DNA of 64,000 bases from Catajapyx aquilonaris (lineage: Eukaryota), in NCBI GenBank assembly GCA_000934665.2, contig KZ538425.1, positions 1 to 64,000 of the forward strand. Reading direction: 5' to 3'. The notes below the pieces were generated by a model, which saw only the letters and a program-made list of their open reading frames with translations, had not been told where the DNA came from and did not search any database. This document shows, piece after piece, positions 4,112 to 62,755 of this stretch. The position numbers were made by a program, and so were the translations under genes. Position 1 is the first letter of the stretch; each line of letters opens with the position of its first letter.

Positions 4112-6834
4112 TTTTTTTTGTAACTTTTGTGGTTCGTAAATTTTAACCAAATTTAGTAAATACAGTATCTTTTTTTCAGAATAACAAAACCATTTGAAGG
4201 GTTTTGGTGAACTGGATTGGCAAACTTGAAGAGAACAGGTATTCTGTATTATCAGAGATTTCAAATTGCTAATTTTCTTAAAGATATAATGAATGAATTG
4301 GAGGCAATAAAGGGGCCTGCAAGTCTTCCTTACAAGTGTTCAGCCTAAATCTGAAAAATGATGAAAGAGAGAACTGAAGCTGCAAGAATGATTTGCAGAG
4401 GTCTGTCAGTATGACTGGTTACGCCTATACTAGTTACTTGTGTACTGTACATTGTGTAATCACTAATGCCACGAATTAATACATTTATTCTGAGGGACTA
4501 TGGCACTTATTTTTCTTAATATAATTAGTTCTATTTATCGTCCTTGTTTTAGTTCTTCAATTTGCTATACATGTCGGAATAGAGCTGCATGCTGAAATGT
4601 TGGGCTACATTTATATATGGATATCAGTAATATTTGGTCAGTCTCCTTTATTGAATGGAAGGATAAGAGTAGGCTATACTGGTGAAACATTATTTCTCTG
4701 TCGGTTTTCTAGGTTTTCTTTCAACAGTCACCACTTGTCTCTACATTATACAGTACTAACTCCATACAATATCCGTTTATTATGCAACACTTCCACTCTT
4801 GCTGCAATGTTATTGCTTCAACTGACTGACCTTTCGACTGGAGCTGTCAACATCCACGTGCCTCCACAATGTAAACTGCCCATCGCACTGTAACCATCAG
4901 CACACGTGTAATCGGCCGGATGCAACTGCAACACAATAATGACGCCTCCCTCAGACCCGATGCCAATTTTGAAAAGCCGGACCTGATGTTTAATGCCGTC
5001 AAAGTAATAATTAAGGACGACGACAAACCCAGTTTTTCATGACTTGGCATGCTAAAAAAAAAACCAATGTAAATTGGCAGTTCAGACACTAAGTGGGCAT
5101 ACACATACCCTGATCATTGACTGGTAGATACTCTCCCTTCGCGACAGCTGCATTGGTCAAATTGGAGCGATGGTAGGGGAGTGAGAGGGACTGTAATTAT
5201 GCGCCAGTCATAACTCACTCAAAAAAAAAAAAATGAGAGAGAGAGAGCCTGACATCAAGTCAAAGTGGGCTGTCAGGTCGGCCTGTTTTAAAAACTACTG
5301 GAGCGGCAAAAGCCAGCCCTTCTGCTCCGCACCTTTGCCAAACACCGGGTGAGAGAGAAAGGGGTCCAAAAACTTCACTTGACAAATTGACTGCAAATTC
5401 GGGGGGCATAAATCGCCACCACCCTCTGACCCCCTACTCCATACAATGACCAAAGCCCAACCCCTCGAGGGACTTCAAGACACGTGCGCTAATTAATCTC
5501 CACCACTGACACCTCTAAAGTGGGGGGTCATCCAACCTGCAAAGAGAACTGTGGAGCTTCTGAGCTAAAGGGTGCAATAATAAAATTTTACAGATAAATC
5601 AACAAATTTTAAAATTAATAGTAATGTGTATGAACACAAGCAGATTGCATGTTGACATGAAGAGATTTAGTAAATATTATTTCAGTTCTTGCCCTTTTAT
5701 TCAGATGCTCCACTATAGTGGAGGGTGTAATGAATGGAGCGTTTGGTGTTTTTTTCCTTCAAAAAACCCATTTCTTGTAATTTACATCCAGTGTTTAAGA
5801 AAACGCACTAGTCGACTTACAATATCAACCACCAGCTTGATGGATGCGTTGTGATTGGATGGGGAGGTGGAGAAGATACATCTGGTTTTTTTTGTGGGTC
5901 GACTTAGGGGGGGAGGGGGCAAAAATGTAATTACTATTTACACCTTATGGAAGGGGGGGGGCAGGGGCAATATGACAGTACTGAAGTACTCTCGGAATGT
6001 GCGTCGTATAATGAGGAGGGAATGGGAAGGGAGAGAGAAAAAAAAAAGAAATGTGAAGCCACGCACGCCACGTCCTACGATTATATTCATATTCACAAAA
6101 TGTACAAACCACGTCACTGCCCAGGTCACCCTCCCTTCAAGCGGATCAAAATTGTCCTTGTGTCCACTTGAAGGGAGGGAAAAAGCATTTCTGTATACCA
6201 AGGGGCAAGTCAGTTGGCGTCCATTAGTCTAAATATAAATTAATTTGCAAGTGTTCAAATTGGAGGGAAGAGGAGGAGGAGGAATAAAAGGCGAGGGGGT
6301 GATACTTTGGAGGTATTACAGGGCAAAATTGAGAGGGGAAGGGCGAAAAATTAAGGGGTCAACTGCATATCACTTTTATCAGATTTTGTCACCTAAATAC
6401 TAGTACAGTCTAAATCAGGGCAAATTCTACATTGCCCAATTGTAATTTTTTTCCTCTTTCTTGATATGATTCGAATTACGTGTTTTTTTTTTTTCAGAAA
6501 AAGACGAACAAGAACCTCCTGGGTCATCACTCCTATTTACAAGAAAACAAGATGAGAGGTTGAGATTCACACCGAACACTAAAAATGAGCACGATTTGGT
6601 TCCATTTTTACCGTATTCCTTATAGCACAACGAGAAGAGTTCCAATAACAAAATGGCATCATTTTTCTGTTTTTTTTTGGGTCCGTGTTTCTCGTCCCAC
6701 ATACTCATAATTATTTCACAAAATTGTCCTTTTGTATGGTCCGGGCGGAGAAGATTAGAGGAGATGTGAAGTGTGATGAGGAAGATGGTTGTTGTTGTTG
6801 TTGTTGTTGGGCCGGTCTTGTTCCTCCGGGTTCT

Positions 6835-6941
6835 TCACTTAGTGGAAGACACCAGAGGAGACCCATAGGGCTGAGCATTACACGTCGGGAGGGCAAAGGG
6901 ATTCATGGTTGCAAAAGGCGACGACACCAGACTCCCGACTC
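6835..6941 (-). CDS. coe: Alternative C-terminal exon B: (R)VGSLVSSPFATMNPFALPTCNAQPYGSPLVSSTK*
   Basis: Acceptor ttttttccaattttatctcgacag|GA (phase 1), 34 sense codons then TGA; resembles the insect Collier/Knot C-terminus (NPFALPTCN...LV.STK, from recollection). This reading frame is absent from the ORF track. Confidence 0.88.
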
Positions 6942-7984
6942 CTGTCGAGATAAAATTGGAAAAAATACGGGGGTTGAAAAACATCAATTATTGCAGGTGG
7001 ACTATTATTAGTACACAAACAGCGTCACTTTTTTCCGGAATATTCCGGTCCCAGAGTATTTCAGCTCAACAGGATTTTGCATGTGTAAAGAGGAAGCAAG
7101 ATGCCAACTTTATTTCATTACGAAAAATTCATGGACATCATATGATCTGTAGGCATCTTGCTGCTGTTCTTGCCATGCATGACCTGTAACCGTTTACATG
7201 TTAACCACGCTATTGTCAAACTCTAGGTTCACTATCATGGCATTAGCGGAATCGGTTAATTATTTACTATACATCAGTTTGAAAAATATGCCCCAAAGTG
7301 TGGTTAATTCACAACAGCAGGAGCATAGTGTCTGCACTTTTATTGTATGTACTGTACAGTAGTTGCAAGCGAAAATTGCTAATCGTACAGTATACTGGTG
7401 GTAACTGTATTCCTCATAAATATTTGCAGGTTACTTGAGAATTAACATGTCCCACCAAAGTAATTATGACCCCCAAAGTACTGATGCTTCCAGACCTGAT
7501 TCCATTAATACCAATAGAGAACCGTGTGGGGGGCTAAACAACTTCCAACCCAACCCCCCCTCCAAACTCCCCCCTCAAAAAATATTGGTAATTGTAAACC
7601 TCCTCTTGTCGAAGAGATTACAGTCCAATAATGTGACAGCTTGAGCACGTGCAAACAAAACGAAAGGGGATTAACGACGAACATGCATTAGACCATCCCA
7701 ATTCTGTCGCTAAAAGGGCAACACGAGCGCCACGTGCAACGTTAATCAGTCCCCTCTTTTTCCCAGGCATACACATCACACTCTCCCAAAAAAAATAAAA
7801 GGTACACACACAGAACATGTCCCTTTCCCACCATTTAATTTCTTTTTAAATTTCAAAAAATAAATTGAAGGGTTAAAGCGTATAAGCACGTGGAAAAAAA
7901 TGATATAATAAAATAATGAATTTTTTGAAAGGCAAGACACTGCAGCCACCTACTGAGAAGAACCAGGACAAAAAGCGGCGCATA

Positions 7985-8205
7985 CTAACACTGCACTGCG
8001 AGATGTTGCCAGCTTGCGGCCGTCTGGAAGCCGGAGAATGGGGAAGGGGTGGGCAAGGGGGGGCGCATCACGGGGGCGAAGGCACTTTTCTGTTTGACAG
8101 CCAGCTGACCCAGAAAGCCCCCAGTGGTAGCAGTAGTAGCTGTAGTAGCAGTAGTGGTAGTGGCAGTCTGGTACTGGTAGCCACTAGGGGGATTGGGTGA
8201 TAAAA
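7985..8205 (-). CDS. coe: Alternative C-terminal exon A: xLSPNPPSGYQYQTATTTTATTATTATTGGFLGQLAVKQKSAFAPVMRPPLPTPSPFSGFQTAASWQHLAVQ(C*)
   Basis: Very strong acceptor (tttctttgccttcttttttatcttcttcag|TT, phase 1); contains the EBF C-terminal motif AVKQKSAFAPV.RP; ends at TAG 7985-7987 or at donor T|gttagt (exon end 7990). Confidence 0.88.
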
Positions 8206-9002
8206 CTGAAGAAGATAAAAAAGAAGGCAAAGAAATCAGTGCCACGGAATTTTGTTTGTTTGTTTGCTTGTTATTGCTGTCTCCTGATTATTTTGAGCAG
8301 TGAAGTGTCACGCAGTTTGCCAGAATTTGCACTCATTTGTTCAGTTATTGCCAGATCCTCATGAGCTATATGCAATAAATAAATAAATAAAATATATAAA
8401 CATTCACAGTATGACTGGTTGTACCAATTGCGTTTACGAAATTCCGGTACATACTGCTGATGCTGGTGAGAATTGACATAAAAAGCATTTAGCCAGCTGA
8501 CCTGACATCAGTTTTTTAAAAATTGTTGGAGGTTGTATTTCTTTCGAATTGATCAAGCATTTTATCAGCGTTTAATGTACCGGTACCTGAACGAACCTCA
8601 TGAAATAATAGTTTGCGACAATCAAAAGGGGGGGCCTGTTCAGTGCTGCGGCAAATAATTTAAGAATTCAAATCAAAACCGGCATGACAGCACACAGAGC
8701 GATCAGAATCACAATGGATTTTTACTAGGATATGAAGAATTTTAAACTTGACATTCTATCAGCTCTTATAATATTGTTTAAAAATTTCATCTGGGAGACT
8801 GATCTCTCATAAAGCTGAAAGTATGTGCCAAAGGCTATGTAAACAAAATATTACGACTTTCATCTTTCTCCATTTTTTTAGTTTGTAAATACAAGGTAGT
8901 AAACAAAAGACCGAATGATTTATTTTAATATTTATCTACTGCGAGTCATTACTGCTGCTTGTTAATAGATTTCATCAGAGGGCGTAATTGTTTCACTCTC
9001 AC

Positions 9003-9035
9003 CTGCATTTAAACCCATAGGCGGAGGATTCGTAA
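9003..9035 (-). CDS. Possible 33-bp phase-1/phase-1 microexon: (I)TNPPPMGLNA
   Basis: Strong donor GCAG|gtgaga at 9002 and frame-preserving acceptor gaatag at 9036. The acceptor is weak, and a competing AG 11 nt upstream would give an immediate stop. Confidence 0.3.
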
Positions 9036-9465
9036 CTATTCCGAATCTATAAAATCGTTGCTCAAATGAGAGGTGACTCTTGAAAAATAAACCTCATCAA
9101 ATAAAGCGTCTACTGCGTGACATACACCACCACATATCTGCTGCAAAGAGTTTTGGCCACTTCCGCTGTGTATAACAAGTTTGCAAATAAGGTTTGGTGC
9201 CATGCTATGATGTAAACAGCCATATAGAAACTTTGGATTTGGCCGTGTAAACCAAAACGATAACAATTATATATAATTAAAAAAAACATCCACACGTCCA
9301 GGAAGAGCCACACATTGCCTCATGCACGTGACTCCCCTCCCATTTATATCCAAAAAATAATAATAATAATAATAATCTTCTCGTACAAGGTGAGATAGAG
9401 CGAGACAGATAGAGAGAGCTGGGGGCCAGTGGAGAAAAAAAATAATTGTCGCGACAACTACTCAC

Positions 9466-9660
9466 TTGAAGATGAATTGAAGAGTCCGGCGGGGGATCCA
9501 GGTACGGGCATGTTGGAGAGCTGCGAGGCTGCGGCGGCTGAATAGGATCCGTTCATGGTTGCGGTTCCGTAAGAGCTGCCGTTGGAGGAGTGCGGTGTGG
9601 ACGCGTTCGACCCGTAACCCCTTGGAGAAACGCTACTGCTCTGCCCGCGACCGTACTCCT
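9466..9660 (-). CDS. coe: Ser/Pro-rich C-terminal region exon, 195 bp: (E)EYGRGQSSSVSPRGYGSNASTPHSSNGSSYGTATMNGSYSAAAASQLSNMPVPGSPAGLFNSSS
   Basis: Acceptor tttttcttctag|AG, donor TCAA|gtgagt; phase 1 in, phase 1 out; carries the SSVSPRGY..STP and VPGSP motifs typical of COE tails. Confidence 0.93.
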
Positions 9661-10599
9661 CTAGAAGAAAAACCCTACCAGTGAGACAACGGAGTCAGTC
9701 TCGGTTCCTTGTCAGTGTTCATCAAACACAACTACTCAGGGGACGACTGTACTACACACGATGGGTATACAAAAATGTCCAGTCCAGCCACAAAAAGTGA
9801 TTACTAACAGTAAGTGCATTAATAGCTTTCAGTCTCTCAATTACCTGGAGGCTAGACCCCAACACTTTTTGTCGCGAATAGTACAGTCTTCCACCAGCGC
9901 TTCGGCATGCTACGAAACGCAGTTCACCACAATGACCACAATAACCATGCTCACATGGGACTTTTAAACCGAACCCACTCACTACAAATAAAAAGGGAGA
10001 GACTCTTGTGAGGGGGTTACCCAGAGGGATATGGGGATGGGGGGGGATGAAGAGAAGAGGAACGCGGCATCCTATAATTTCATAATAATGTCGCCTAATA
10101 GCAAGTCCCGCTTGAATAAGCCATTAAATTATTGCTAGACAAATTCGATTACGTTTCCGGTCTAATCCCATTGACCGAGGAGGCTTTCATAGAGTGCCCG
10201 ACTCCCATCCCCACCCTCCCATCTGACTTTTTTATTTCCATGTGGAGGAGGGGTGGGTGGGTGTTTTAAAAAAAAAATCCTCCAGCACCCACCACTCACA
10301 ATTATGAAAACAAAAAGGAGTCAACCGTAAGGAAGGTTCCAGGTATGTCCACCCAACGTACAGAAATGTGTGTCATGCTGTTTCTCCCTCACAACAGGCA
10401 AACTAATTTTTTTTTCTTCAAAAAACTGAAAATGACCAAGTCTTTCAACAAAAAATTACTGCTGCACCCTTCCAAGACTTTCTTGCAAAAATGCAGCATC
10501 TCCCACTACTGAACTGACCAAAAAACACAACTAAAAACCAAGCTGAAAATTAGTATACAATGAGGCTACTACGACTTGGTGAGGAGAAGCGTTAAGCAC

Positions 10600-10786
10600 C
10601 TTCGTTCCACTGACCGTTTCCGTTCTCCTGGACGCTCACGGCTAACTGGCCAGTGTACGTGTTGAATCCGGACATGGTGTTGTTGGGCATGGCCGGCGAC
10701 CGAGGCGCAGTCAGGGCCAGCTGGTTGTTCCGGGGCATGCTGTACAACGCCTCTGCCAGGTCGGCCGCACGCTTCAGGATTATCTC
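10600..10786 (-). CDS. coe: HLH helix-2 exon: EIILKRAADLAEALYSMPRNNQLALTAPRSPAMPNNTMSGFNTYTGQLAVSVQENGNGQWNE(E)
   Basis: Long pyrimidine tract ending ttttctgaag|GAG; donor GAAG|gtgctt (phase 1), with an alternative same-phase donor AACG|gtcagt at 10615. Confidence 0.93.
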
Positions 10787-10852
10787 CTTCAGAAAATTTG
10801 GAAGAGGAACAAGAAAGTGTCAAAAAATAGGAAGACTAGTTGATTTTTAAAA

Positions 10853-11076
10853 TATTACATAATATATAAAGCAAAAAGTAGGTCGGTATTTATGTATATG
10901 TCACAACCTAACCCACTTTCAGAGTGATGAGAGTACTGAAACTTGGCTCACTGACGTCTTACGTATACCGTTGATTTAGGGAAATGTCAGAAAACTGCAA
11001 TTTTAAAAAGTCTAAGTACCCAAAATATAGAATTGTTTGTTTTAAAAAATGATGTTTGGTGTCTGTCTCCTGCTAA
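10853..11076 (+). mobile_element. Degenerate copy of the non-autonomous Helitron-like element, inside a 313-bp coe intron
   Basis: Colinear with the reverse complement of 46320-46585 (ACCTAACCCACTTTC, CTGAAA.TTGGC.CACTGACGTCTTA, AAAACTGCAAT, AGTCTAA...CCCAAAA, TGTTTGGTGTCT). Confidence 0.75.
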
Positions 11077-11099
11077 TAAAGCTTAAAGAGTGGACGTAC

Positions 11100-11188
11100 C
11101 TTGGGAAGCTTCTCCGGGTCTCCTGGATGACGAGGTATCAACTTCTGTAGCCGTTGGAAGCCGTAGTCTATGGTGGGTTCGTTCAAAG
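11100..11188 (-). CDS. coe: HLH helix-1/loop exon, 89 bp: (S)[29 protein letters not shown]
   Basis: Acceptor tcgttgcag|CT, donor AAG|gtacgt; phase 1 in, phase 0 out; 59-bp upstream intron. Confidence 0.97.
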
Positions 11189-11247
11189 CTGCAACGACAT
11201 GCCGTCAGAAAATTGGCCATATTATTACACCCTCCCGTGTAACTTAC

Positions 11248-11636
<389 letters not shown>

Positions 11637-14600
11637 TCAAAATGGGACATGTCCAGGGGATTAGCGATACGATACACTCGTCCACCTGTTCCGACCACTC
11701 TGGGACATCCTGTAATTTCCTCCCCTGCACAGGAAAAGTACCAGACGGGTACGAGAAATTAGAAGATGTCTCGTTCAAACAAGCAACGGAACGAGATGGA
11801 CAGGCGTGTACACTAATATCTAATGGTTTTGTGGACACACTCGAAATTTGTTTTTTTACTTGGACTTTACATGAACAAATTATTATTTTGTCATTTTGAA
11901 ATGTTAACTGCGTTGCGCAATGATACGTGTAAATTGTTGGGCGTTCTTGGTGGCTCAGTTTGCACATGTTCTTTGATGTATAAGCAAAAATTGGCAAAAA
12001 AAAGCAGAACAACCGACCAAATATCGCCGAGTTAAAACGTTTTCCATGAAAAAAAAAAAAACATTTTCATAGAAACACTGGAATGTTTAAATGAACTAGA
12101 TCAAACAGCTACTTCAAAATTATGATTTGTAAGCAATAATTGATCACGCCGACAAAATATTACTGTGTTTGGCAACGCCTAAAGGCGGATCCTCATTGGG
12201 CATGATTTTTCACTCGCTTCCATAATTCTCAGTGCTTATCCTACAATTGGTTTTTTAATGCGTCCTTGGTGGCCACTATAGTTTACTGTTAGGCATTGCC
12301 GACGAAAGGCTTACACAGCACTGTATTTGTAACACGAATGATGGCAGTTCACCATCTCTCTTAAAACTGAACCACCAACAACGCGCTCTAAAGCATTTCT
12401 GCGAGAGTGAGTTCCTTCTGAGCAAGTGGTTCACATTGCATCTGTACAGGGTGAGGCATGATCGGAAGGAAAATTAAAGAATAACAGTAAAATAATATTG
12501 CGAACCCATCTACAACGTATCTGGTATATAAAACGAAAACCTGTCCACAGCGGAATATTTATTCGAAAGCCTGGTATGCAAAACGATCAAGAGTCGTACC
12601 TGACTGATTTAGAGGTACCGTATTTGAAGTTCGAAGATTGTATTATTTCTGATAGGAGCTTTTTCACCAGAGAATTGGATTTACCACCAGAAAGTAAGTT
12701 AGAGGAAAGTATTAAACAGTGAATAATGATATTTTGACAGAAATGTGATTCTGGTCGTTCTGAATTTCAGGCGGATGATTTTCACTAAATATGTGTTGTT
12801 GGATCGGTATCTACTCGTAACGAGATAATTTTCATTAGGGTAGTCCCTAACGGTGAAAGCTAACTTTTGCCTAATTAGATTTCAACTGAAAATTCTATAT
12901 GCTATCAGTATTCCAAAAAAATGCAACTTTTCAGCGTTACTAGTGGGATTAGAGAATTTAAAAATAACTCCTGGCTTATTGTTTTCAAAAAGTAATATTT
13001 CACTAAATAAACGTTTCTACAACACTGTTTGCACACTGTGGCAACATTTAAAATGGGGGAAATACAATGGGAAGCGGTAATTGACGCAACTCAATTACAG
13101 TAATGCCAATTTTAGTGAACAGTATGCAAATAGAAAAATATCCCATTTACTATAGAGCCAAATCATCCAACCAAAGCATTATGCCTTTATATGAAGTTTA
13201 CAAAAATTGCCAAATCGTGATATTCTGATTCTTAATGGGGCACCCTAATGATGCAAAATGTTTTTAATGTAATATAATTAGGAATAATGTCAATAAGCAT
13301 TATTGCAATATGAGCCTACACCAATCCTGAAACACATTTTACGTCGCACACTACCGATTTGTTAACTTTGTTGAACGGAGTTGATTCCACTGCAGATAGG
13401 TTTCAATGTATAATTGGTTTAAGATGTTTGTGGTCTGATCTTGCCTCATCCTTTGCACAGATCGCTGCTGATTAACTCCAAGGTCAAGGCATTAGAAGGG
13501 CAAGTTGTATCAAAGCAAATTGTGCATCAAAAATATTATTGCGCATAACTGGAGATATTCTCTTAATGTGAAGTCATACAACTGGCCCTTAATAATCACG
13601 TGCCATGCATTTGACCTGATAAAATCAGTTCACAGAAAGAATGATATTACGGAATGCCACTGGTTCACTTGTCCCGTAATCATTCGTTTTCTGGAGTAAT
13701 TTTATGCCGTATATACAGGTCTTTTATCACACTATTTTCGCTTCTCGGAGAATGAACCACCTGCGAAAGGACTTCCCTCTAGATTTAAAAAAAAAATCAC
13801 AATAAAGTGGGGCGAGCTTAGCTTAGTTGGCTGTGGTGTCATTATTTGCACTCTCAGACCAAGTGGTACGCACTAATTATACGCTAATGACAGCTTTACG
13901 TAAGTCAGGAACGCTTCAGGGTTAGTCATTAAAAATGTGCGGCGGTTATGTGATAGCTTAAGTACTGTTATAGCAAACTCCCCATGCTCGTTTGCTCCAA
14001 AAAAAAGCAGCTTCCTGTCAGCGTATAAAAGGAAATATATATATACTTCACGGAAAAAGCTATACGTACGCCAATCCAGCAATCCCACTGTGAAAGAAAA
14101 GAATCGGTGAATTGCAATATGCAGCCAATTCACTTGCACTCTCGCCCTACTTTATAATATAATTATATACACACGTGTAACAGCCTTATTAAATGACCCC
14201 ACAGAACCACAGACAAAACTCTCTGACATAATCTACATTGTCTCGCCACCGAATCCCTCCTATAGTTTCTTTTTTATATATTTTTTCTTCCTGCTGCTGC
14301 CGTTTCCTTTTTTTCCACCATTTCTCTTTTCCCAGCCTCCCTGCTGCCATCTCATCTCATCTCCGGGGGATTCGGTCCCAACCCCAAGCAAGGCTCCCCA
14401 ACCCCATCGAAGAAGGCGCGAGTGGGAATGACGCTGGGATGGCCCGGGCTGCAACCAATCGGAGACGCTCTCCATCCAACAGCAGACAAGGGGAACAAGA
14501 GAAAGATGGCCGACCCAGAGAGAGAGAAAAAAGGGGGGGAGAGAATGGTGGGGGAGAGAGAGAGAGAGGGATGTAATAATGTTCAGGATCCGGTCAGAAT

Positions 14601-17712: not shown

Positions 17713-18754
17713 TAAGCATTTGAAGTATAAACAATTTGCACTCCAGATGAATGTCTTGCACGTGGACATGAAAATTTACAATGTGACGCCTGCGAATCTC
17801 TCTAGGTGCTCAAAATATTTCGCAATCATGCTTTTCCGACAGTGTCCTATACACGCACACAACACGGGCTGCCGTTTTGTTTACACACCTGCAATTGACC
17901 TTGCACAATTTTTCTTTATCAACACGCGCATGTTGCCATGTTTACCCTTACAACAACCCTCGGGTCGAACCCCATCCCTCCCTCCCCTCACTTTCCGATA
18001 GATTCATGCGCGAAGAAAATGGCCGCTGGCTCGTCCATCAAATGGCCGCTTGTGCCCTGGGTAAGGCCAAGACTCTTGGGATTAGGGATTAGGCCCAACC
18101 CCCTCTCTCCCCATCTTCTGAACTAACCCTCACCCTCCCCTTTTCCTCCCCACACCCAACACACCCCACCTCAATCCCCCACCAACCCAACCTTCCCCTA
18201 TCCAGAAGAATGGCTGTATCCTGGGCTCAGACGCCTGCACATCCTTCATATTGATTACGTCCCGTTTGTCGTGCGGACTTACTTGCGGCTCCATGTATTA
18301 GGTGGGTTGTAGCCCCAGCAAAATCAATAACACGCCCCCCCCCCCTCCTCCCAACCCACCCACCGTCATCTCTTCCCATCCCCCCCTACCCAAAACTGCG
18401 CACGCACTCACCAACCCATAGGTTACACAAATAATATGGTCAACGACAAAGGGGGAAACAAGTGCTTTGGGCTGAGCCAATCATGAAAGGCATTAATGGG
18501 CTCTTTATTACGCTAATGGCCATGCAGCCCGGGTTGTATTCAGTCCGACGCTCTTCCCGAGGCTCAACCGGAGCGCAACAATGTTCCAGTGTTTGGATGC
18601 CGAAAATGGCGACAAACATTTTTTTTATGGGAGAAGAAAAAAAAAATACGGCGGATAATGATACAAGTAGATAGTCAGAGAGTTGAGGGAGTGATCCGGG
18701 ATTTTTTTTTTCAAAAAAAAAATAGGGCAATAATTGATCGGGGGGTTGTCTTAC

Positions 18755-18872
18755 CTTCAGAAGGATCGAGACGTTTCGCACGGCGGCCATGCTTGGAGTT
18801 GTTGTGGACGAACATGTTGTCTGACACGGACAAGAGGGGGCCGTCCACGCTCACCTGTGTCGCTATCACCAC
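18755..18872 (-). CDS. coe: COE DNA-binding domain C-terminal exon, 118 bp: [39 protein letters not shown](G/A)
   Basis: Acceptor ccgttgcag|GTG, donor GAAG|gtaaga; phase 0 in, phase 1 out. Confidence 0.97.
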
Positions 18873-21284
18873 CTGCAACGGTATCAGTTGGAAAATTGAT
18901 GGTCACTGCATTGTACAAGTATAACACTGACCAAAAAAAAGCGCATTTGACCAAAAAAAAAACTAGCTGAGTAGACAAAATGGCGACAACTTGAAGGAAT
19001 AAGGCCATTTCCATTTCCGACAGCAGCAACACATCTCTGCCTCGGAGCACAGAGTTGGGCTACTAACTACATAAGAGCGGCATGTAATCCACACGCATGT
19101 GGTTTAATTCCGCGGGCTCAAGAAAGTCCCATCTCGCGGGCTGGAAAGCGTTAGTGGCCACAATGCTAAATGTCCGGCGGTGAGTGAGTTTCCTTTTGCT
19201 GAAAGTGCAGTAGGGGGGTCCAATTGGACCAGTAATCTTAGTTGGCCGAGTTGCCGGCGTCGTGTGATTAACATGTTTGAAGTTGCGGCGGCGGAAACAC
19301 GGGGAGAGGCCACACCGAAGCGAGGCCTGCTCCACATCAAAGACCACTCCCAAAGGAAACTAACCATCTTAACGAAATTAGTCCTGCCACCCGAATACAT
19401 GGATTTAGCAAAACCTCGGGGGCTCCCTACGGGAATGCCCTTGCCATTAGGACTATTAACTCCCAGCGTCCCAAGACCATGTTCGGCGTCCCCGACCCCA
19501 AGTCACCTGGACATGATGGGAGAGAGTAAAAAAAATAAATTGTGTGTACAGGCTGGGGGTAGTGTCGGACGTCAAAACAGAAGCAAGAGGTTGACCTCTC
19601 TGGAGGTTTCTAGTTACTTGCTGACAAGGAGTATTAGTAATGCAGGAGTGTCGTGGTACCTGCTTCTCCGAATAATCAAGAGGCCCCTGAGGGGTATACA
19701 ACACGCCCAGTGTTGGTTGTGTGCGGGATGCAGTCCAGGATTTCGCATATTTACACTGTCAGGGAATCGCGATATAATCAGTGCAAAAATATTTGAAATA
19801 AATTCATATTATAATATTTTCTGCTAGGATCGGTCTTTTATTTTTGTTTGTGTCAAGAATGGCAATCTGAAGTGTCGGAAATTAGCAAGATAGATTGTAA
19901 TTTTTAATGGTGTTTCAGAGAGTGAAGTACTTGTCAAGTGCAAGGATTTTTTTTAAAACTAATGATAAGTTCAGGAAACAGAAGTGCTTTTTTTTCTGGT
20001 TCAAAGGGTTTTTTCGACGGGCGACGAAAATAGGATTATGTCAACATGAACTTTGGGTCTTACAGTAAGCTGCCTCTATATAATCCGCAATTTTTGGTTT
20101 GAAATTTGTTACAAAGGATTTAAAGGGTTCCAAAACATTTTTTGGGGGTTACTTAACAAAGGTTTTCTATTTCGTATATAAATGAAAGTAGTTCTACTAT
20201 AGTATTTCCATGCGCGGGCATTACTATAATTATTTATAATGCAAATCTGCATGAAACAGTATGCAAATTACATACTGCAGCATAAAATAGGAATTTCGTG
20301 ATATTTATTTCGCAACATTTCCTCAGTGACATATTTTGTGCCAGATGTCAGAAGCTGAAAAACTGTAAACAACGTGTGAATTCAACCAGATCGTAACTGC
20401 AATGTAGTTCTATAAGGCAACCAACAATTTCAAGCTTCACATCAATAACCGATCTATAAGTACTCAACAAAATTACAACCTCATTTTAAATGTGGACAAA
20501 AAAACTGATGGGGAAAAAAGCTGGGCTGGGGTGATGAGATTCACCCTGTAGTTTGACATTAATCAGATCTGATTTACGGGCCCCAAATCCGGATTAAATC
20601 ATTCAGTGCTTTCCGATAAATCGCAAGTGAAGCTTAAACGCGTTTTGCGAAACAATGCGAGCCAAAAACAGTGCGCTAAGTCCCAAGCTCTCTGGTTATC
20701 GCAGGCAATTAGCAAAACTCTTCAATGAGTGTGATTTCTCTTCCCGAGAGACTTTTCCGCCGCCAACATCCAGGACAAGTGCAATTACTCCCGTTAGGCT
20801 TACAATTCAGATTCCGCCTCCCACCTCCCCCCCTGTGCATCCAACTATTGTCCTTTTACGACAAGGGCTGTTTATCTTTTTACTATTATTGCCGCATGAT
20901 AATGCAGACGTAAGCCTTTAAGCCTAAATAAAGCACGGACGCAAAAACAAGAGCCAACGTAAACGTTTCCCAAATTCGCATTTGCAATGTGTAACGGCTT
21001 GCCACCTGGAAACTCTTAATGAACCCATCCAACCCGGAATAACCTCCCCAGTTTATTATTTTGAAGCTATTACAGCGCGACATGCCAGACAGTAATTGAT
21101 TAATGTGTTCCAATCGGGAGTGAAGGGAGCTTTTTGACGCAAATTACCGCCACGGAAATGCCCGCCGGGGGGCACCGCATCTCCTGGAATGGCTTACAAA
21201 CCGATGGGGAAAAAATAATAATTCAGATGACCAGTGACCTTTTCAGCCAAGAAAATCACTTTCTAAATGATTAAATTACAAACA

Positions 21285-26052: not shown

Positions 26053-26379
<327 letters not shown>

Positions 26380-55800: not shown

Positions 55801-57421
55801 TCCGATTCAATTTGTGTGCCCGGGGTCAGGAGTTAGCGCTGGGGCTTACGTCGGACCCCCTTCCCAGCAGCAGAGAGAGACGGAATAATGCAAAGGGGGG
55901 TGTATGTACCCAAGCATATCCCTCTGGCTAACTCAACAAGAAGCCAGAAAGAAGAGAGTAATTAGACTGGAAGGCCCCTTGCCTTAATATATGGTGCGCC
56001 CCTTTTGCTTTGGACCCTGCACATTCTTGCAGAGGTTCTTATCGCCTAGTTACACTGCTCAGTGTGTGAAGGTTTGGGGAGGTTTTCCCCCTGCTGGGAA
56101 TTTCCATCCTCAGAAGTGGGGGTGTGGCCATAAAGCGCCAGTGGTACACGTGCCTCGGGGCCGTAACCTTCTCCCAGACTACCTGTTTTATGAAGGGGGA
56201 AGGCAAAGGGAGAATTCGCAGTTCATCGGAGAAGTTTTGGGTCGAATTACACACGTTCCACTTTTTTTTTCTCTCCTTTTTTCAAAAGCAGGTTAAGAGC
56301 AGGGGGGGAAAAAAAGCAGGTTTTGATCTGTCCTGATGATCAAACTCCTTTACACATCGTGTCATGTGCGGCGGAGTGCTTACAAGGATTCTTGGGGCGG
56401 AGGTGACGAGGGTCCAAGTTGCTTGTCGGTGCCGGTTTTTATGGGCGGCTTGGGGATTTGCAGAGTGCACTTCTTTCAACTTAGGCTACTCCAACTCGAA
56501 CCAGCACCACCACACACAAACACACAGAAACGAAAATCGCTTTCCATAATATACTAGCCTGATTAATGATATTTCTGTAGGCTATACGAGCAGGAAATGA
56601 AATAGTCACAAAAATCGGCTAATTGTTAGCAGGTGGTGTCGACTATGCGACCTGATTAATAAGTTGGAGGTATTTCGCAACGTGCATGTACGATACAAGG
56701 TGGTGGAGTTTAAAAAAAATCCGCAGCAGAAATTAGTGGTATCACGCTGAAAAAAGCAGAGACCCATTTTCCCTCGAGAGTTCGTTGTAGGCAACCACAT
56801 CAAAAAAGAGTGGAGGGGCTATGTTTTTGAACTCTTTTTTTTTCTGTCTCTCTCTGGGAGCTTTATCAGCTCGGGCAATTGGGAGATGATCGCTTGTTTC
56901 GGGAGGTACGGAAACAAAACCAGGAGGATGAGGAGGGGGGAAAAAGATAGTCATCGGTCGGGAAGCCCAAAAATATTCCTCAGACGGAGAAACAAAAGGG
57001 CAAAATTAAATTCAACAACCCACACGAAGTGACTTGCAGATTAGTTTTACGGCAATATTATCTCGGTTTTCCCTTCGCTTGCACTGTCAACGTATCCGGG
57101 AATCCGGAACCCACCTTGCGGCGAGGTTGCCAGCATCAGAGAGGAATAATTCCTCTCAGCCAGATCTCTCTCTCTATATATATATACCTTCCCCTCTCCC
57201 CTTTTTACAAATCGAACCCTTCCCTGCCATTCCTGCCCGAGATAAGAGGAGAAAAAGAGGGATCTGGAATTTCACGCTCTACTCCGATTCGCTGCATCCG
57301 CATCACTTCGCCTGGATGCCTCTAAGAAATTGACCTCGCTCCCACTTTCCTTCAGACACAAGATATTGACAATTCGTCCATGGTTGCAGCACGAAGAAGT
57401 GAAGAAAAATATGGTCCTTAC

Positions 57422-57490
57422 CTGTCGATGATGACAGGATCAGAAGGAGTCTCGTTCCTGTTTCCGCAGCTCTTCTTATCGCAACAGCGG
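57422..57490 (-). CDS. coe: COE zinc-knuckle exon, 69 bp: (S)[22 protein letters not shown](R)
   Basis: Acceptor ttttttcag|C, donor GACAG|gtaagg; phase 2 in, phase 2 out; matches the COE signature motif. Confidence 0.97.
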
Positions 57491-60400
57491 CTGAAAAAAA
57501 GTATAATAGGATATAATTATAAATGCGTTCCCCCCCCCTTCTTCCATCTTATTCTGAGTGTTACTATAGTTGAAGGTTTGGTTTGGTGGGGGAGGGAGAT
57601 GGTGGCGAAAATGCTGAGGCAAGGAAAAGCAGTAAAAGCCATTGGGGCCCTTGTTCTCCCAGGGCAATCGTCTCCCTTGCCCGGCCATTGTGTGCCCCCT
57701 TCCTGCTTGTTATATGCTGCTTGGGCGACCCCCTCCTCCTCTTTCCAGATCGGTTGGTGCCTATACCTTCCAGCATTCCAATGTGTGTGGGGAGGACTAT
57801 TTTCTTTCTTTCTTCTTCTTCCCCAGATTGTTCTCCGCTCACGACTTTGCATCGCACTGGCCTTAGGGAACAGCACTAGGTACAGATGGAGGCAGGGGAA
57901 TGATCATGGGAAGTTCCTAGCATCGTTAGGAATACCTCCCCTAAACCGGCGCCTTATTGGAGCATTTTCTCCTGGGAATTTAGGTTGACTCACCCCTGTT
58001 ACATTGCTGCGACTACAGCCTGTCCCGGAAAGCAACTTCTGAGTCACCCTGTGTGCTAAATGGAATATCTGGCGAATCATTAAGGTAATTAAATCCTCAG
58101 GCCTTTCCACGTATTATTCCCGGTGCTGTAAGGTGCGTTCAGTCTGGGTTCCCTCCCCAAAAAAAGAGCTCCGAAACCTGCCATTCTCGGAGTTTAACCT
58201 CCAGGAAATGGCGTCTGACAAGGAAACCGCGTTGACGTTCCTCAAGAGACCCGCCTTGGAGACGATCCATCCGTCACCATAACTTAATCTTCCCTTCCCG
58301 ATGCAAGGGAAAGCGGCTAATTGCCGGGAAAAAGCCTTTTCCTCCCCTTATATTCAGAGAGAGAGAGAGAGGAACGTCACCTTTGTTATACAAGTACGTC
58401 TGTAATTGGGGCAAAGCACTGCAACTAGCAAAATAAAAAACTGCGGTTGCGTGGGTGGCGGCTTGGCTGCTACTGCAAAAAAAAAAAGTGCGAATAAATG
58501 TCGCGAGTCGGATGTGGAAATCAGCTTTCGCGCGCGTACGACTTTAAACCGGCATACAAGGGAATTAAATCTTTATCCTGTGGTCTTACGCCACCATCAC
58601 TAGCCTTCTGGGAGCAATATACGTACTTAAACTAACACCACGCGCTAACGCCAGTCACGTTAATTTTGCACACTGCAATTCAGAGGGTCCGCCCAGCAGG
58701 CCCTCCGATATATATACATACGGCCCACCAGATCAAACAAACGTTCACATCTACAGGGTGTTACCAACAACGGAAGGGTTATTAGGATAGGCCTCTGGCA
58801 CCAGAATAAAAAGAGAGAGCGGCTTTAAATTCAATGCCTCGAATAATTTTTTGGCATTTTACTGCAGCCTGATAAATATGCAAAAGCAGGCTGTCTTTCA
58901 TGAAGTGATTATAAATTCAGTACATTAAAAAAAAACTAGGCTGTGCAATTAAGTTCAAATAAAACTGTTCAATTTTTGAAGCATTAGATTACTGTTGTGT
59001 TTGAATGTAAGCATACCTCAATTAATCTCTAAATTGCCTACATATGTTTGACACTGTAGCGTAAACAGCAGTGTATACATTACTGAATTTCGTTTAAAAA
59101 AAAGTACTGGCTTATAAAATTACTTTTTAGGCCAAGTTCAGCCATATTTGCCAATAATATTTGACCTGATGTTATACAAAGTACACTTTTCTGTCCATAC
59201 TAAAATGACATGCGCAAGTCACATGTAGGTCCAAGGTCAACGCTTTCAAGTCGTGCTTCAAATGCAATTTTAAATCATTCCCTGTGACTCCCACGCAATT
59301 TCAGCCTGATCTGAGCCATCCTGTGCCTCTCTCCAAACATGGCGGAGTCGAGTATGTGTGTATATATCAGTCTGAAATTCTCTTTTTGTCTGAAACGATG
59401 CCACCTTCTGATTCTTCCCTTTGTTGGCAGTTCTTGCATCCAGGGGAGGTTGGAGAGTGAGAGAGAGATGGGGAGAGAGAGAGATGGGGAGAGAGAGAGG
59501 ATGAAGGGAGATGAGGGAGATGGATAGAAGGGAGAGGAGGAAAGTGGGGATGGGCGGGGAGAGAAGCGAGCCCCGCTCTTCTTGATCCCCAGGGATCCGA
59601 GCCCCTCCCATTACTCTGCTTTAGGGCCGGCAGAAGGCTCGCAGCAGCCGCTTGTCGATAGCACCGACTTTCCCTCCCCCCCGTCACAGCGCGCTGAGCA
59701 CGAAGGCAAGCACAATGGAGGAGGAGGAGGAAGGCGCTGGGGGAATATATATACATATAGGAAGGGGCAGCCTAGCTCAAGCTCACTTGCTGCCAAGACA
59801 CATGCACACACAAATAAAAAGACAATCAGAAATAATAATAATAATATTGTCAAAAAAAGGGACAGCCCGGTGCCATGTGCTCATTACTGCACGTGCCTGA
59901 GCAGCCATTATTGCCCCGGCATGTTCTTATAGAAGGAAGAAGCTAGGTTGAGAAGTCTGCTACAGATGGCAAGGTTTCTCTCGTCTCCTTTTGGTACGCA
60001 TGCCCCATCGTTGCAGAAGGCGAAGTGAGGGAGGAGGATGGAGGGGGATTGGGGGGGGGGAAGTCTGTGCCCGGAAGTGCTTCGACAGTATCGATCACCG
60101 CTGCAAAACGTCTGATACTTGTTGAAGCATGAAATAGTTCCGCTATGAACACCTGAACTGACGTGGGAGAGCAATTCCCATCTGGCCCATGAATGAGGAA
60201 ATCCTGCACTCCATCGCGCGATACACCCATACAGTGCCGAGACACTGATTTTTCTTCAAGATTTTTTTTTGGTGTGTGTGTGGAGGTCGATGGCACACAA
60301 AGTACGTCGAGTGAAGGATTACGTCACGTCAAGTGCATGCATGTGTCTGAATTACACTATGCAACTTGAAAAAAAGCAAGACAATTTATTCAAAATATTG

Positions 60401-62568: not shown

Positions 62569-62755
62569 NNNNNNNNNNNNNNNNNNNNNNNNNNNNNNNN
62601 NNNNNNNNNNNNNNNNNNNNNNNNNNNNNNNNNNNNNNNNNNNNNNNNNNNNNNNNNNNNNNNNNNNNNNNNNNNNNNNNNNNNNNNNNNNNNNNNNNNN
62701 NNNNNNNNNNNNNNNNNNNNNNNNNNNNNNNNNNNNNNNNNNNNNNNNNNNNNNN
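62569..62755. other. Assembly gap (187 N) flanked by poly-G runs
   Basis: Run of N between G homopolymers; the single Ns elsewhere also sit in G/C homopolymers. Confidence 0.99.

Follow-up and report, generated by a model that had tools for sequence, protein, structure and literature searches.

How does one transcription-factor gene come to offer two different C-termini, and does a locus that encodes both stand between two types of tail or follow the habit of its family? The question is raised by a stretch of 64,000 nucleotides from Catajapyx aquilonaris (assembly GCA_000934665.2, contig KZ538425.1, positions 1 to 64,000 of the forward strand; hereafter the window), whose minus strand, judged by its sequence, carries the 3′ two-thirds of an arthropod coe (collier/knot/EBF) transcription-factor gene, the 5′ coe exons and the N-terminal part of the protein falling outside it. 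A sequence-only reading of this gene had proposed that it keeps two C-terminal tails as mutually exclusive outputs, switched by a stop codon formed across a splice junction, and that the locus may be an intermediate state in the evolution of the COE transactivation region. We consider it highly probable that one tail exon, exon A, is an optional frame-preserving cassette giving the COE protein either tail A or tail B, in an arrangement that is ordinary for the family.

Three tail exons and the codon at their junction

The 3′ end of the gene contains the following features (a slash within a sequence marks an exon boundary; nt, nucleotides).

9466..9660, minus strand: Ser/Thr-rich activation-domain exon (Ser-rich exon), 195 nt, phase 1 at both ends; matched by tblastn with 74 of 120 homologue tails, best E 9e-23
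7990..8205, minus strand: exon A, candidate optional cassette, 216 nt, phase 1 at both ends; tblastn and alignment
7984..7989, minus strand: exon A donor, AGT/GTTAGT, weak; exon end CAG T/gttagt
7989-6942, minus strand: A–B intron, 1048 nt; poly(A)-signal-like hexamers inside, no conserved coding block by tblastn
6939..6943, minus strand: tandem acceptor cAG/GAG/ before exon B; the proximal AG gives the T/GA stop or A/GA Arg
6835..6941, minus strand: exon B, coding part; tblastn 86% identity to Periplaneta X2 and Bacillus rossius, 42 of 120 tails

The Ser-rich exon has the acceptor ..ttcttctag/AG and the donor CAA/gtgagt, and ends ..GLFNSSS with one spare base, A9466. Exon A, with the acceptor ..tcttcttcag and a long pyrimidine tract, completes this base to A/TT (Ile) and continues with LSPNPPSGYQYQTATTTTATTATTATTGGFLGQLAVKQKSAFAPVMRPPLPTPSPFSGFQTAASWQHLAVQ; its peptide, I-LSPNPPSGYQYQ-(Thr run)-GGFLGQLAVKQKSAFAPVMRPPLPTPSPFSGFQTAASWQHLAVQ, begins I-LSPNPP, carries the motif AVKQKSAFAPVMRPP and ends SWQHLAVQ with the spare base T7990. 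Exon B has the acceptor ..tctcgacag and the first base G6941, and encodes VGSLVSSPFATMNPFALPTCN..STK followed by a stop. Joined to the Ser-rich exon it gives A/GA (Arg), then VGSLVSSPFATMNPFALPTCNAQPYGSPLVSSTK, and is closed by TGA at 6837-6835, the 3′ untranslated region (UTR) continuing below 6835. Joined to exon A it gives TGA from T7990, G6941 and A6940. If the donor of exon A is left unspliced, the frame reads TGT (7990-7988) and TAG (7987-7985), a stop one codon into the intron. The lengths of exon A and of the Ser-rich exon are both divisible by three, so each preserves the frame; with exon A included, exon B therefore stays in register, and the junction codon alone stops translation.

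Minus-strand reading and translation confirmed to the base the exon ends, spare bases, A/GA, T/GA and TGT TAG of the sequence-only reading. Its claim that exon A silences tail B also holds, in that the frame ends before B in this sequence whether or not the donor at 7989 is used. The further suggestion, that the spliced form would escape nonsense-mediated decay, rests on the vertebrate exon-junction (50-55-nt) rule, and its relevance in arthropods is doubtful. Nonsense-mediated decay in Drosophila is not known to depend on exon junctions.

We propose that the C-terminal activation region is built of phase-1 exons, with exon A optional between the Ser-rich exon and the last exon, B. With exon A skipped, 9466 would be joined to 6941, the junction would read AGA (Arg), and the protein would end in the B motif SSPFATMNPFALPTCN. 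With exon A included, the protein would gain KQKSAFAPV..WQHLAVQ and then stop at once, by one of two routes: either the weak donor GTTAGT is spliced to B, with TGA made from T7990 and GA6941-6940, or splicing does not take place, TGT-TAG is read, and the transcript ends in the A–B intron. The choice of exon would set which short conserved motif the factor carries, presumably altering the cofactors of its disordered activation domain. Both forms are presumably used in this organism, and the choice of tail would be expected to have a functional consequence.

A junction stop could arise by chance. Given an exon B that starts with GA, the prior for exon A to end in T is about 1 in 4, and the weight of the junction TGA comes from the comparison with relatives. 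The exons themselves are another matter. In a chance test, the last 130 residues of 120 homologues were compared with the window by tblastn, and the matches on the minus strand between 6000 and 10600 were binned. The matches cluster at four places only, namely the helix-loop-helix (HLH) exon upstream of the tail (25), the Ser-rich exon (74), exon A (56) and exon B (42), and all remaining bins hold 1-2 matches each with E >= 2.9. For exon A the best match is Tenebrio P0014 (E 5.5e-6), which reaches 7988 and so includes the Cys codon, with Tribolium madens X2 at E 0.002; for exon B it is Bacillus rossius P0007 (E 1.65e-14, 86% identity). As the matches are confined to the HLH exon and the three tail exons, exons A and B are real conserved coding exons, and the expectation that both tail peptides are conserved in relatives is borne out (56/120 for A, 42/120 for B). 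A protein search with exon A alone returned 1271 candidates and none at E <= 0.01, the peptide being too short for the index used.

One public RNA run (X1), sharing 5% of sampled words, was compared with positions 5500-12500. It yielded a 162-nt contig on 8039-8200, inside exon A, which is 90-95% alike and differs by three base changes, one 3-nt deletion and one 3-nt insertion, with the length changes in the region of the Thr run. These in-frame length changes are a weak hint of a transcribed, coding-constrained exon A in this organism or a close relative. A second contig, on 6057-6129, fits in part and sits at a repeat. The run left exon B and the Ser-rich and HLH exons uncovered, which is uninformative as to expression.

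Other sequence features accompany these exons. The ACT/ACC/GCT run of exon A (8120-8175, minus strand) codes for TATTTTATTATTATT, and the differences of the RNA contig suggest that this Thr run varies in length between alleles or close relatives. Microsatellites on the same strand comprise (AAC)n at 6790-6815, in the 3′ UTR right after the stop of exon B, and (ATT)n at about 9350-9375, in the intron that follows the Ser-rich exon. Were the distal AG of the tandem acceptor used, the junction codons would be T/TC (Phe, with A fused to B) or A/TC (Ile), and Polyplax P0029, with ..SPAG-I-GSLVPSPF, has the shape expected from such use. An alternative donor for exon A, CA/GTGTTA at 7991, was rejected; it shifts the frame of exon B (..SRESGVVAFCNHESLCPPDV and a stop), is poor at +4 to +6 and fits the model of no relative.

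Tails A and B among relatives

Tails were classed by two motif patterns defined in this analysis and checked by eye. The homologue isoforms are mostly automatic predictions, and the tails of relatives are known as protein models. Tail A was taken as ..[EQ]K/R-SAF-x-P/V-V .. W-x-x-L-A-V-Q. The class ‘neither’ holds fragments, read-through models and a short isoform ending ..EGFFF, and in set 2 also three collembolan models with another ending.

Census set 1 (120 homologues): A-only, 49; B-only, 37; A then B in frame, 6; neither, 28
Census set 2 (50 further proteins): A-only, 22 by pattern plus P0296 by eye; B-only, 10; A then B, 1; neither, 17

Both tails are spread widely. Tail A is carried by beetles, moths, a caddisfly, bugs, a stick insect and decapods, in a diverged form followed by B by the horseshoe crab and a termite, and outside the arthropods by the brachiopod Lingula and the molluscs Pomacea, Liolophura, Solemya and Octopus. 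Among arthropods, tail B occurs in insects, decapods, barnacles, scorpions, spiders and Limulus; beyond them it is present in Mytilus, Tegillarca, Haliotis and Babylonia and in the nemerteans Tubulanus and Lineus. The two run in one chain in Solemya (..HPILSV-R-MSGIVASPF..), Limulus X1 (..FPCRK-G-MGGIVSSPF..), Cryptotermes X3 (..HHMAVQ-W-VGSLVSSPF..) and Octopus X3. Among the remaining models, P0123 is from Cottoperca gobio and P0124 is from a copepod, not a fly.

Both kinds of isoform, A-only and B-only, are annotated for one gene in at least four species, namely Nilaparvata lugens (X4/X3), Euwallacea fornicatus (X2-X4/X9), Penaeus chinensis and P. japonicus. The exon order found here, Ser-rich exon, then A (KSAFAPV .. 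W-x-x-L-A-V-Q), then B (SSPFA-x-MNPFALPTCN), with phase 1 throughout in the window, is shared by the colliers of Nilaparvata, Euwallacea, Penaeus, Tribolium madens (X2) and Tenebrio (X3), as are the Ile and Arg junctions, a tail A ending ..W-x-H-L-A-V-Q and a tail B of the form ..SSPFA-x-MNPFALPTCN..K; going by their proteins, they may share the split stop codon too. The skipped form reads ..FNSSS-R-VGSLVSS, with the same Arg as here, in Macrosteles, Laodelphax and Nilaparvata X3, and the included form reads ..FNSS[SP]-I-.., with the same Ile, in Nilaparvata X4, Homalodisca, Tribolium and Arctopsyche, so that hemipteran, beetle, caddisfly and cockroach models match the two junctions. The spelling of motif A at this locus (AVKQKSAFAPVMRPP), preceded by the Thr run, resembles the lophotrochozoan and vertebrate spelling more than the insect D/E-K-E-K-SAFAPV. 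Going by the annotated protein models, alternative use of exon A is the norm in pancrustaceans, and an in-frame cassette A before B is most simply read as old, at least protostome-wide and probably bilaterian, with this locus as one more example.

The colliers of the collembolans Orchesella, Folsomia and Allacma (P0281, P0282, P0315) end ..IFNAA(A)TSSPLRSCLWFKH[AT]; this ending differs from both tails and would be either read-through of the donor of the Ser-rich exon or a lineage-specific end.

Crozatier et al. reportedly described, in 1996, two Drosophila Col isoforms or cDNAs with different C-termini, with which the published record of alternative use of this exon would begin. The homologue searches returned no Drosophila protein, and the fly comparison here uses the sequence printed in a supplement to PMC2394523. 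As printed there, the 557-residue Drosophila Col carries ..SSTWHQAFVQHHH.. (Daburon et al. 2008, PMC2394523, Figure S4, supplement file 4). Its ..SSTWHQAFVQ.. resembles the end of exon A, SWQHLAVQ, and it too is the product of a single invertebrate coe gene; unlike tail A, it runs past ..AFVQ for about 40 His/Ala-rich residues, and the printed passage has no KSAFAPV block, so that the fly tail is the more derived. In the same supplement (file 4), mouse EBF is printed as ending ..LQAISGMIVPPM. Fish COE1-A isoforms (P0311, P0319, P0320) end ..AVKQKSAFAPVVRPQ..NGLQ-V-IPGMIVPPM, and these together with the printed mouse end can be written ..AVKQKSAFAPVVRPQ..LQ-x-(I/S)(P/G)GMIVPPM, that is, as A and then what appear to be the first ten residues of B. 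The vertebrate EBF1 motif ..SAVKQKSAFAPVVRPQ.. is almost letter for letter the AVKQKSAFAPVMRPP of the window, and the (I/S)(P/G)GMIVPPM after the junction residue resembles the start of B, G-S/M-L/I-V-S-S-P-F. In contrast to this locus, vertebrates read A through into a B-like end without a junction stop, and their B is about ten residues long and lacks NPFALPTCN; a fish X1 isoform uses an alternative last exon and ends ..LQ-DQSFVDSNKYSTASALQGLAFS. The vertebrate-like protein P0131 ends ..SPYG-T-MSGLVVPPM, with A omitted. Vertebrates also have four COE paralogues and a duplicated helix 2, according to the text of PMC2394523, and the alignment files accompanying Daburon et al. (2008) might display the conserved tail blocks already.

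How the A form ends, and what else the locus might be

The ends of the A-only models bear on how translation stops. Among the arthropods, 21 of them (22 counting P0296) finish on ..[AT]VQ, precisely at the exon boundary; another 15 are longer by a single residue (10 with Cys, 3 with Gly, 2 with Ser), and 26 decapod models close with ..QLLS. Tenebrio molitor offers both of the first two, P0089 (isoform X3) ending ..AVQ and P0014 (‘hypothetical protein’) ending ..AVQC, as would be expected of a DNA layout CAG T/GT plus stop like the one found here. A Cys followed by a stop implies a donor GT-TAA, GT-TAG or GT-TGA, with T at +3. A T at donor +3 is uncommon and weakens the site. At this locus the donor of exon A has 5/9 matches to CAG/GTRAGT, scored by eye, the poorest among the nine donors placed in the coe gene, and the A–B intron holds putative poly(A) hexamers at 7839 (ATTAAA), 7344 and 7114 (both AATAAA), 150, 645 and 875 nt in. 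The junction TGA and TGT-TAG with intronic polyadenylation seem to us about equally probable as the route to the stop here, and they yield the same protein but for one Cys. The stop just behind the donor may be more widely conserved than the split TGA.

The split stop, the last base T of exon A with the GA of exon B, is present at this locus, and relatives were judged from their protein ends only. The junction residues of Cryptotermes (Trp), Limulus (Gly) and Solemya (Arg) contradict it, as probably do the hemipteran ends ..QG and ..HS; the 21-22 models ending at ..VQ and the Tenebrio pair hint that T/GA and GTTAR may be conserved at the DNA level in other relatives. Metagenomes scanned with the exon B peptide pattern gave 601 matching stretches, none of them confirmed, and a scan with the degenerate W-[QH]-H-L-A-V-Q plus N plus GT found 42 loci, 0/42 of which were COE by tblastn with the 120 homologue tails.

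Several observations weigh against an optional exon A with the stop at its junction. In hemipterans the A-only models have Gly or Ser as their last residue (Homalodisca ..AVQG, Cacopsylla ..TVQG, Planococcus ..AVHS), which implies that the last base of the exon is not T in these species and that the split TGA is no general terminator. With so weak a donor on exon A, splicing from A to B may be rare or absent here. RNA run X1, over 5500-12500, gave no contig across a splice junction, and its library may contain DNA. The isoforms in the databases are largely automatic predictions, known at the protein level.

That the locus is an evolutionary intermediate, keeping a vertebrate-type and an insect-type tail side by side, we find barely credible. 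The idea draws on the presence of both motifs within one gene and on the spelling KQKSAFAPV, which is identical to that of fish and mouse EBF1 where most insects have EKSAFAPV. The division into a vertebrate-type and an insect-type tail fails, as both motifs are spread over arthropods and lophotrochozoans (the 49 A-only, 37 B-only and 6 A-then-B models of 120); moreover, single chains with both A and B occur in Solemya, Octopus, Limulus and Cryptotermes, vertebrate EBF1 has A with a B-like end, and P0131 ends B-like without A. An old and widespread A/B arrangement contradicts a transitional role for this locus in the evolution of the COE transactivation region. The pair of alternative tails in the earlier proposal does survive: A-only and B-only isoforms of one gene are annotated in other arthropods.

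Two other explanations concern the use of exon A in Catajapyx itself. It is very unlikely that exon A is an unused, conserved-looking relic and that only tail B is made here: its 72 codons are open in the right phase behind a strong polypyrimidine acceptor, with KQKSAFAPV and SWQHLAVQ intact, and the contig of the RNA library on exon A has only in-frame length changes. The weak donor AGT/GTTAGT and the missing junction evidence for exon A in run X1 speak for a relic, yet the same weak-donor layout is implied in many relatives with annotated A isoforms that end ..QC and a stop. More improbable still is that inclusion of exon A mainly yields a fused A+B protein, the distal AG (T/TC, Phe) or another site bypassing the junction stop. 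The tandem acceptor does exist in the sequence, and fused models occur in Cryptotermes X3, Limulus X1, Octopus X3 and Solemya; against this, 21-22 models from beetles, moths and a caddisfly end exactly at ..VQ, which favours a junction stop in nearer relatives, and the distal site reads GAG. In NAGNAG acceptors a G at -3 makes GAG the least favoured.

More tentatively, and with somewhat less than even confidence, we suggest that the junction codon decides between A alone and A+B, that it has been flipped repeatedly in evolution with the B-only form untouched, and that the stop behind a weak GT-T-A-R donor (..QC and stop) is a conserved back-up in several insect orders and here. At the junction, vertebrates, a cephalopod, a bivalve, the horseshoe crab and a termite have a sense codon (Trp in the termite, presumably TGG); here the codon is TGA, as it would be, going by protein ends, in beetles, moths and the caddisfly. 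As AGA and AGG both encode Arg, a change at the junction would be silent in the skipped, B-only form. If this is true, the ancestral bilaterian gene made [A+B] and [B], and pancrustaceans would have moved to exclusive [A] and [B] by one base change. A junction codon that separates [A] from [A+B] and differs by lineage is the only mildly new point here, and it draws on predicted proteins.

Split stop codons and composite terminal exons are general, known classes. As in the former, a phase-1 exon here contributes its last base and the next exon its first two to TGA; as in composite terminal exons with intronic polyadenylation, an in-frame stop lies directly behind an optional donor. Nothing at this locus is unusual relative to either class. 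The literature searched, including the parts covered of PMC2394523, PMC4290612, PMC3117877 and PMC4312928, held no statement on alternative C-terminal coe exons or a split stop; Crozatier 1996 and Liberg 2002 lay outside the scope of that search, and we therefore do not claim that these points are absent from print.

The upstream gene, further endings and significance

Using the Periplaneta X2 and Tribolium madens X2 colliers as tblastn queries, we placed 11 exons in their proper order between about 61.9 kb and 6.8 kb. The COE identity assumed by the sequence-only reading was upheld by Pfam, which matched COE1_DBD, TIG and COE1_HLH on seven upstream exons (DBD, DNA-binding domain). No Pfam family matched the three tail exons (Ser-rich, A and B). 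The exons upstream of the tail are as follows.

Near 61.8-61.9 kb, minus strand: further DBD exon; tblastn
57421..57492, minus strand, ends approximate: coe exon, zinc-knuckle part of the DBD; COE1_DBD E 1.4e-12, profile 146-169; tblastn 100% to insect collier
26062..26160, minus strand, ends approximate: coe exon, DBD; COE1_DBD E 1.3e-17, profile 169-200; tblastn
18750..18878, minus strand, ends approximate: coe exon, end of the DBD; COE1_DBD E 1.1e-13, profile 195-231; tblastn
11617-11460, minus strand: first half of IPT/TIG; Pfam TIG E 5.7e-10, 39.5 bits (cut-off 20.9)
About 11395-11249, minus strand: second half of IPT/TIG; TIG E 8.5e-4, 19.7 bits, just under the cut-off, for half a domain
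About 11204-11100, minus strand: HLH helix 1 exon; COE1_HLH E 5.5e-20, profile 1-29
10600..10786, minus strand: HLH helix-2 exon, phase 0 to phase 1; COE1_HLH E 3.6e-6, profile 29-44, 27.1 bits (cut-off 27)

The COE-specific DBD with its H-x3-C-x2-C-x5-C zinc motif is present, three exons covering profile positions 146-231 of 231. Behind it lies the IPT/TIG domain, with tblastn identities of 90-98% on its two exons, followed by the atypical HLH dimerisation motif, split over two consecutive exons. For the three exons within 11100..11617 the tblastn identity is 88-98% and the splice sites were read. The best relatives of the HLH exon in the 120-homologue search are arthropod (Strigamia 94%, termites 91%, many insects and crustaceans >80%). 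The introns of the DBD are very long, about 31 kb from 57.4 to 26.1 kb and about 7 kb each from 26.1 to 18.9 and from 18.75 to 11.6 kb; those among the IPT, HLH and tail exons are short by contrast, at roughly 0.04-1.3 kb. An assembly gap of 187 N (62569-62755) lies just upstream of the most 5′ coe exon seen, and given this gap, exons around 62-64 kb may be missing or misplaced. Single N occur at 1155, 29521, 32871 and 53148.

Further endings may be encoded before exon A. The donor of the HLH exon, AAG/gtgctt (10592-10600, minus strand), is weak and in phase 1, and its unspliced reading, GGT GCT TAA, gives ..QWNEGA and a stop after two intron codons. Annotated short isoforms ending ..EGFFF at the end of the HLH exon occur in Onthophagus X6, Cylas X2, Harmonia X4, Tigriopus X3 and several transcript-derived proteins. 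A third C-terminus, lacking the activation domain, is probably encoded at this donor. The Ser-rich exon can be skipped in frame as well; Tegillarca P0102 (..QWEEG-MSSIVASPF) and Thrips palmi X2 P0307 (..QWTEE-MGSFFSTSF) resemble products of such skipping.

The locus itself is not surprising, and fixing the 3′ exon structure of this coe/collier gene is mostly a matter of tidy annotation. The stop codon of the A isoform is either created by splicing or located one codon inside the intron, a situation that gene predictors can mishandle, as the ..QC, read-through and fused models among relatives illustrate. In a passage of an EBF1 review, the C-terminal activation domain is described as ‘only poorly conserved’ (PMC4312928). 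The census brings out two short motifs in this domain that molluscs and insects have conserved, one of which vertebrates share, and whose use is governed by the choice of exon. Conserved motifs chosen in this way point to isoform-specific COE partners, which could be searched for in Tribolium, Drosophila and mouse.

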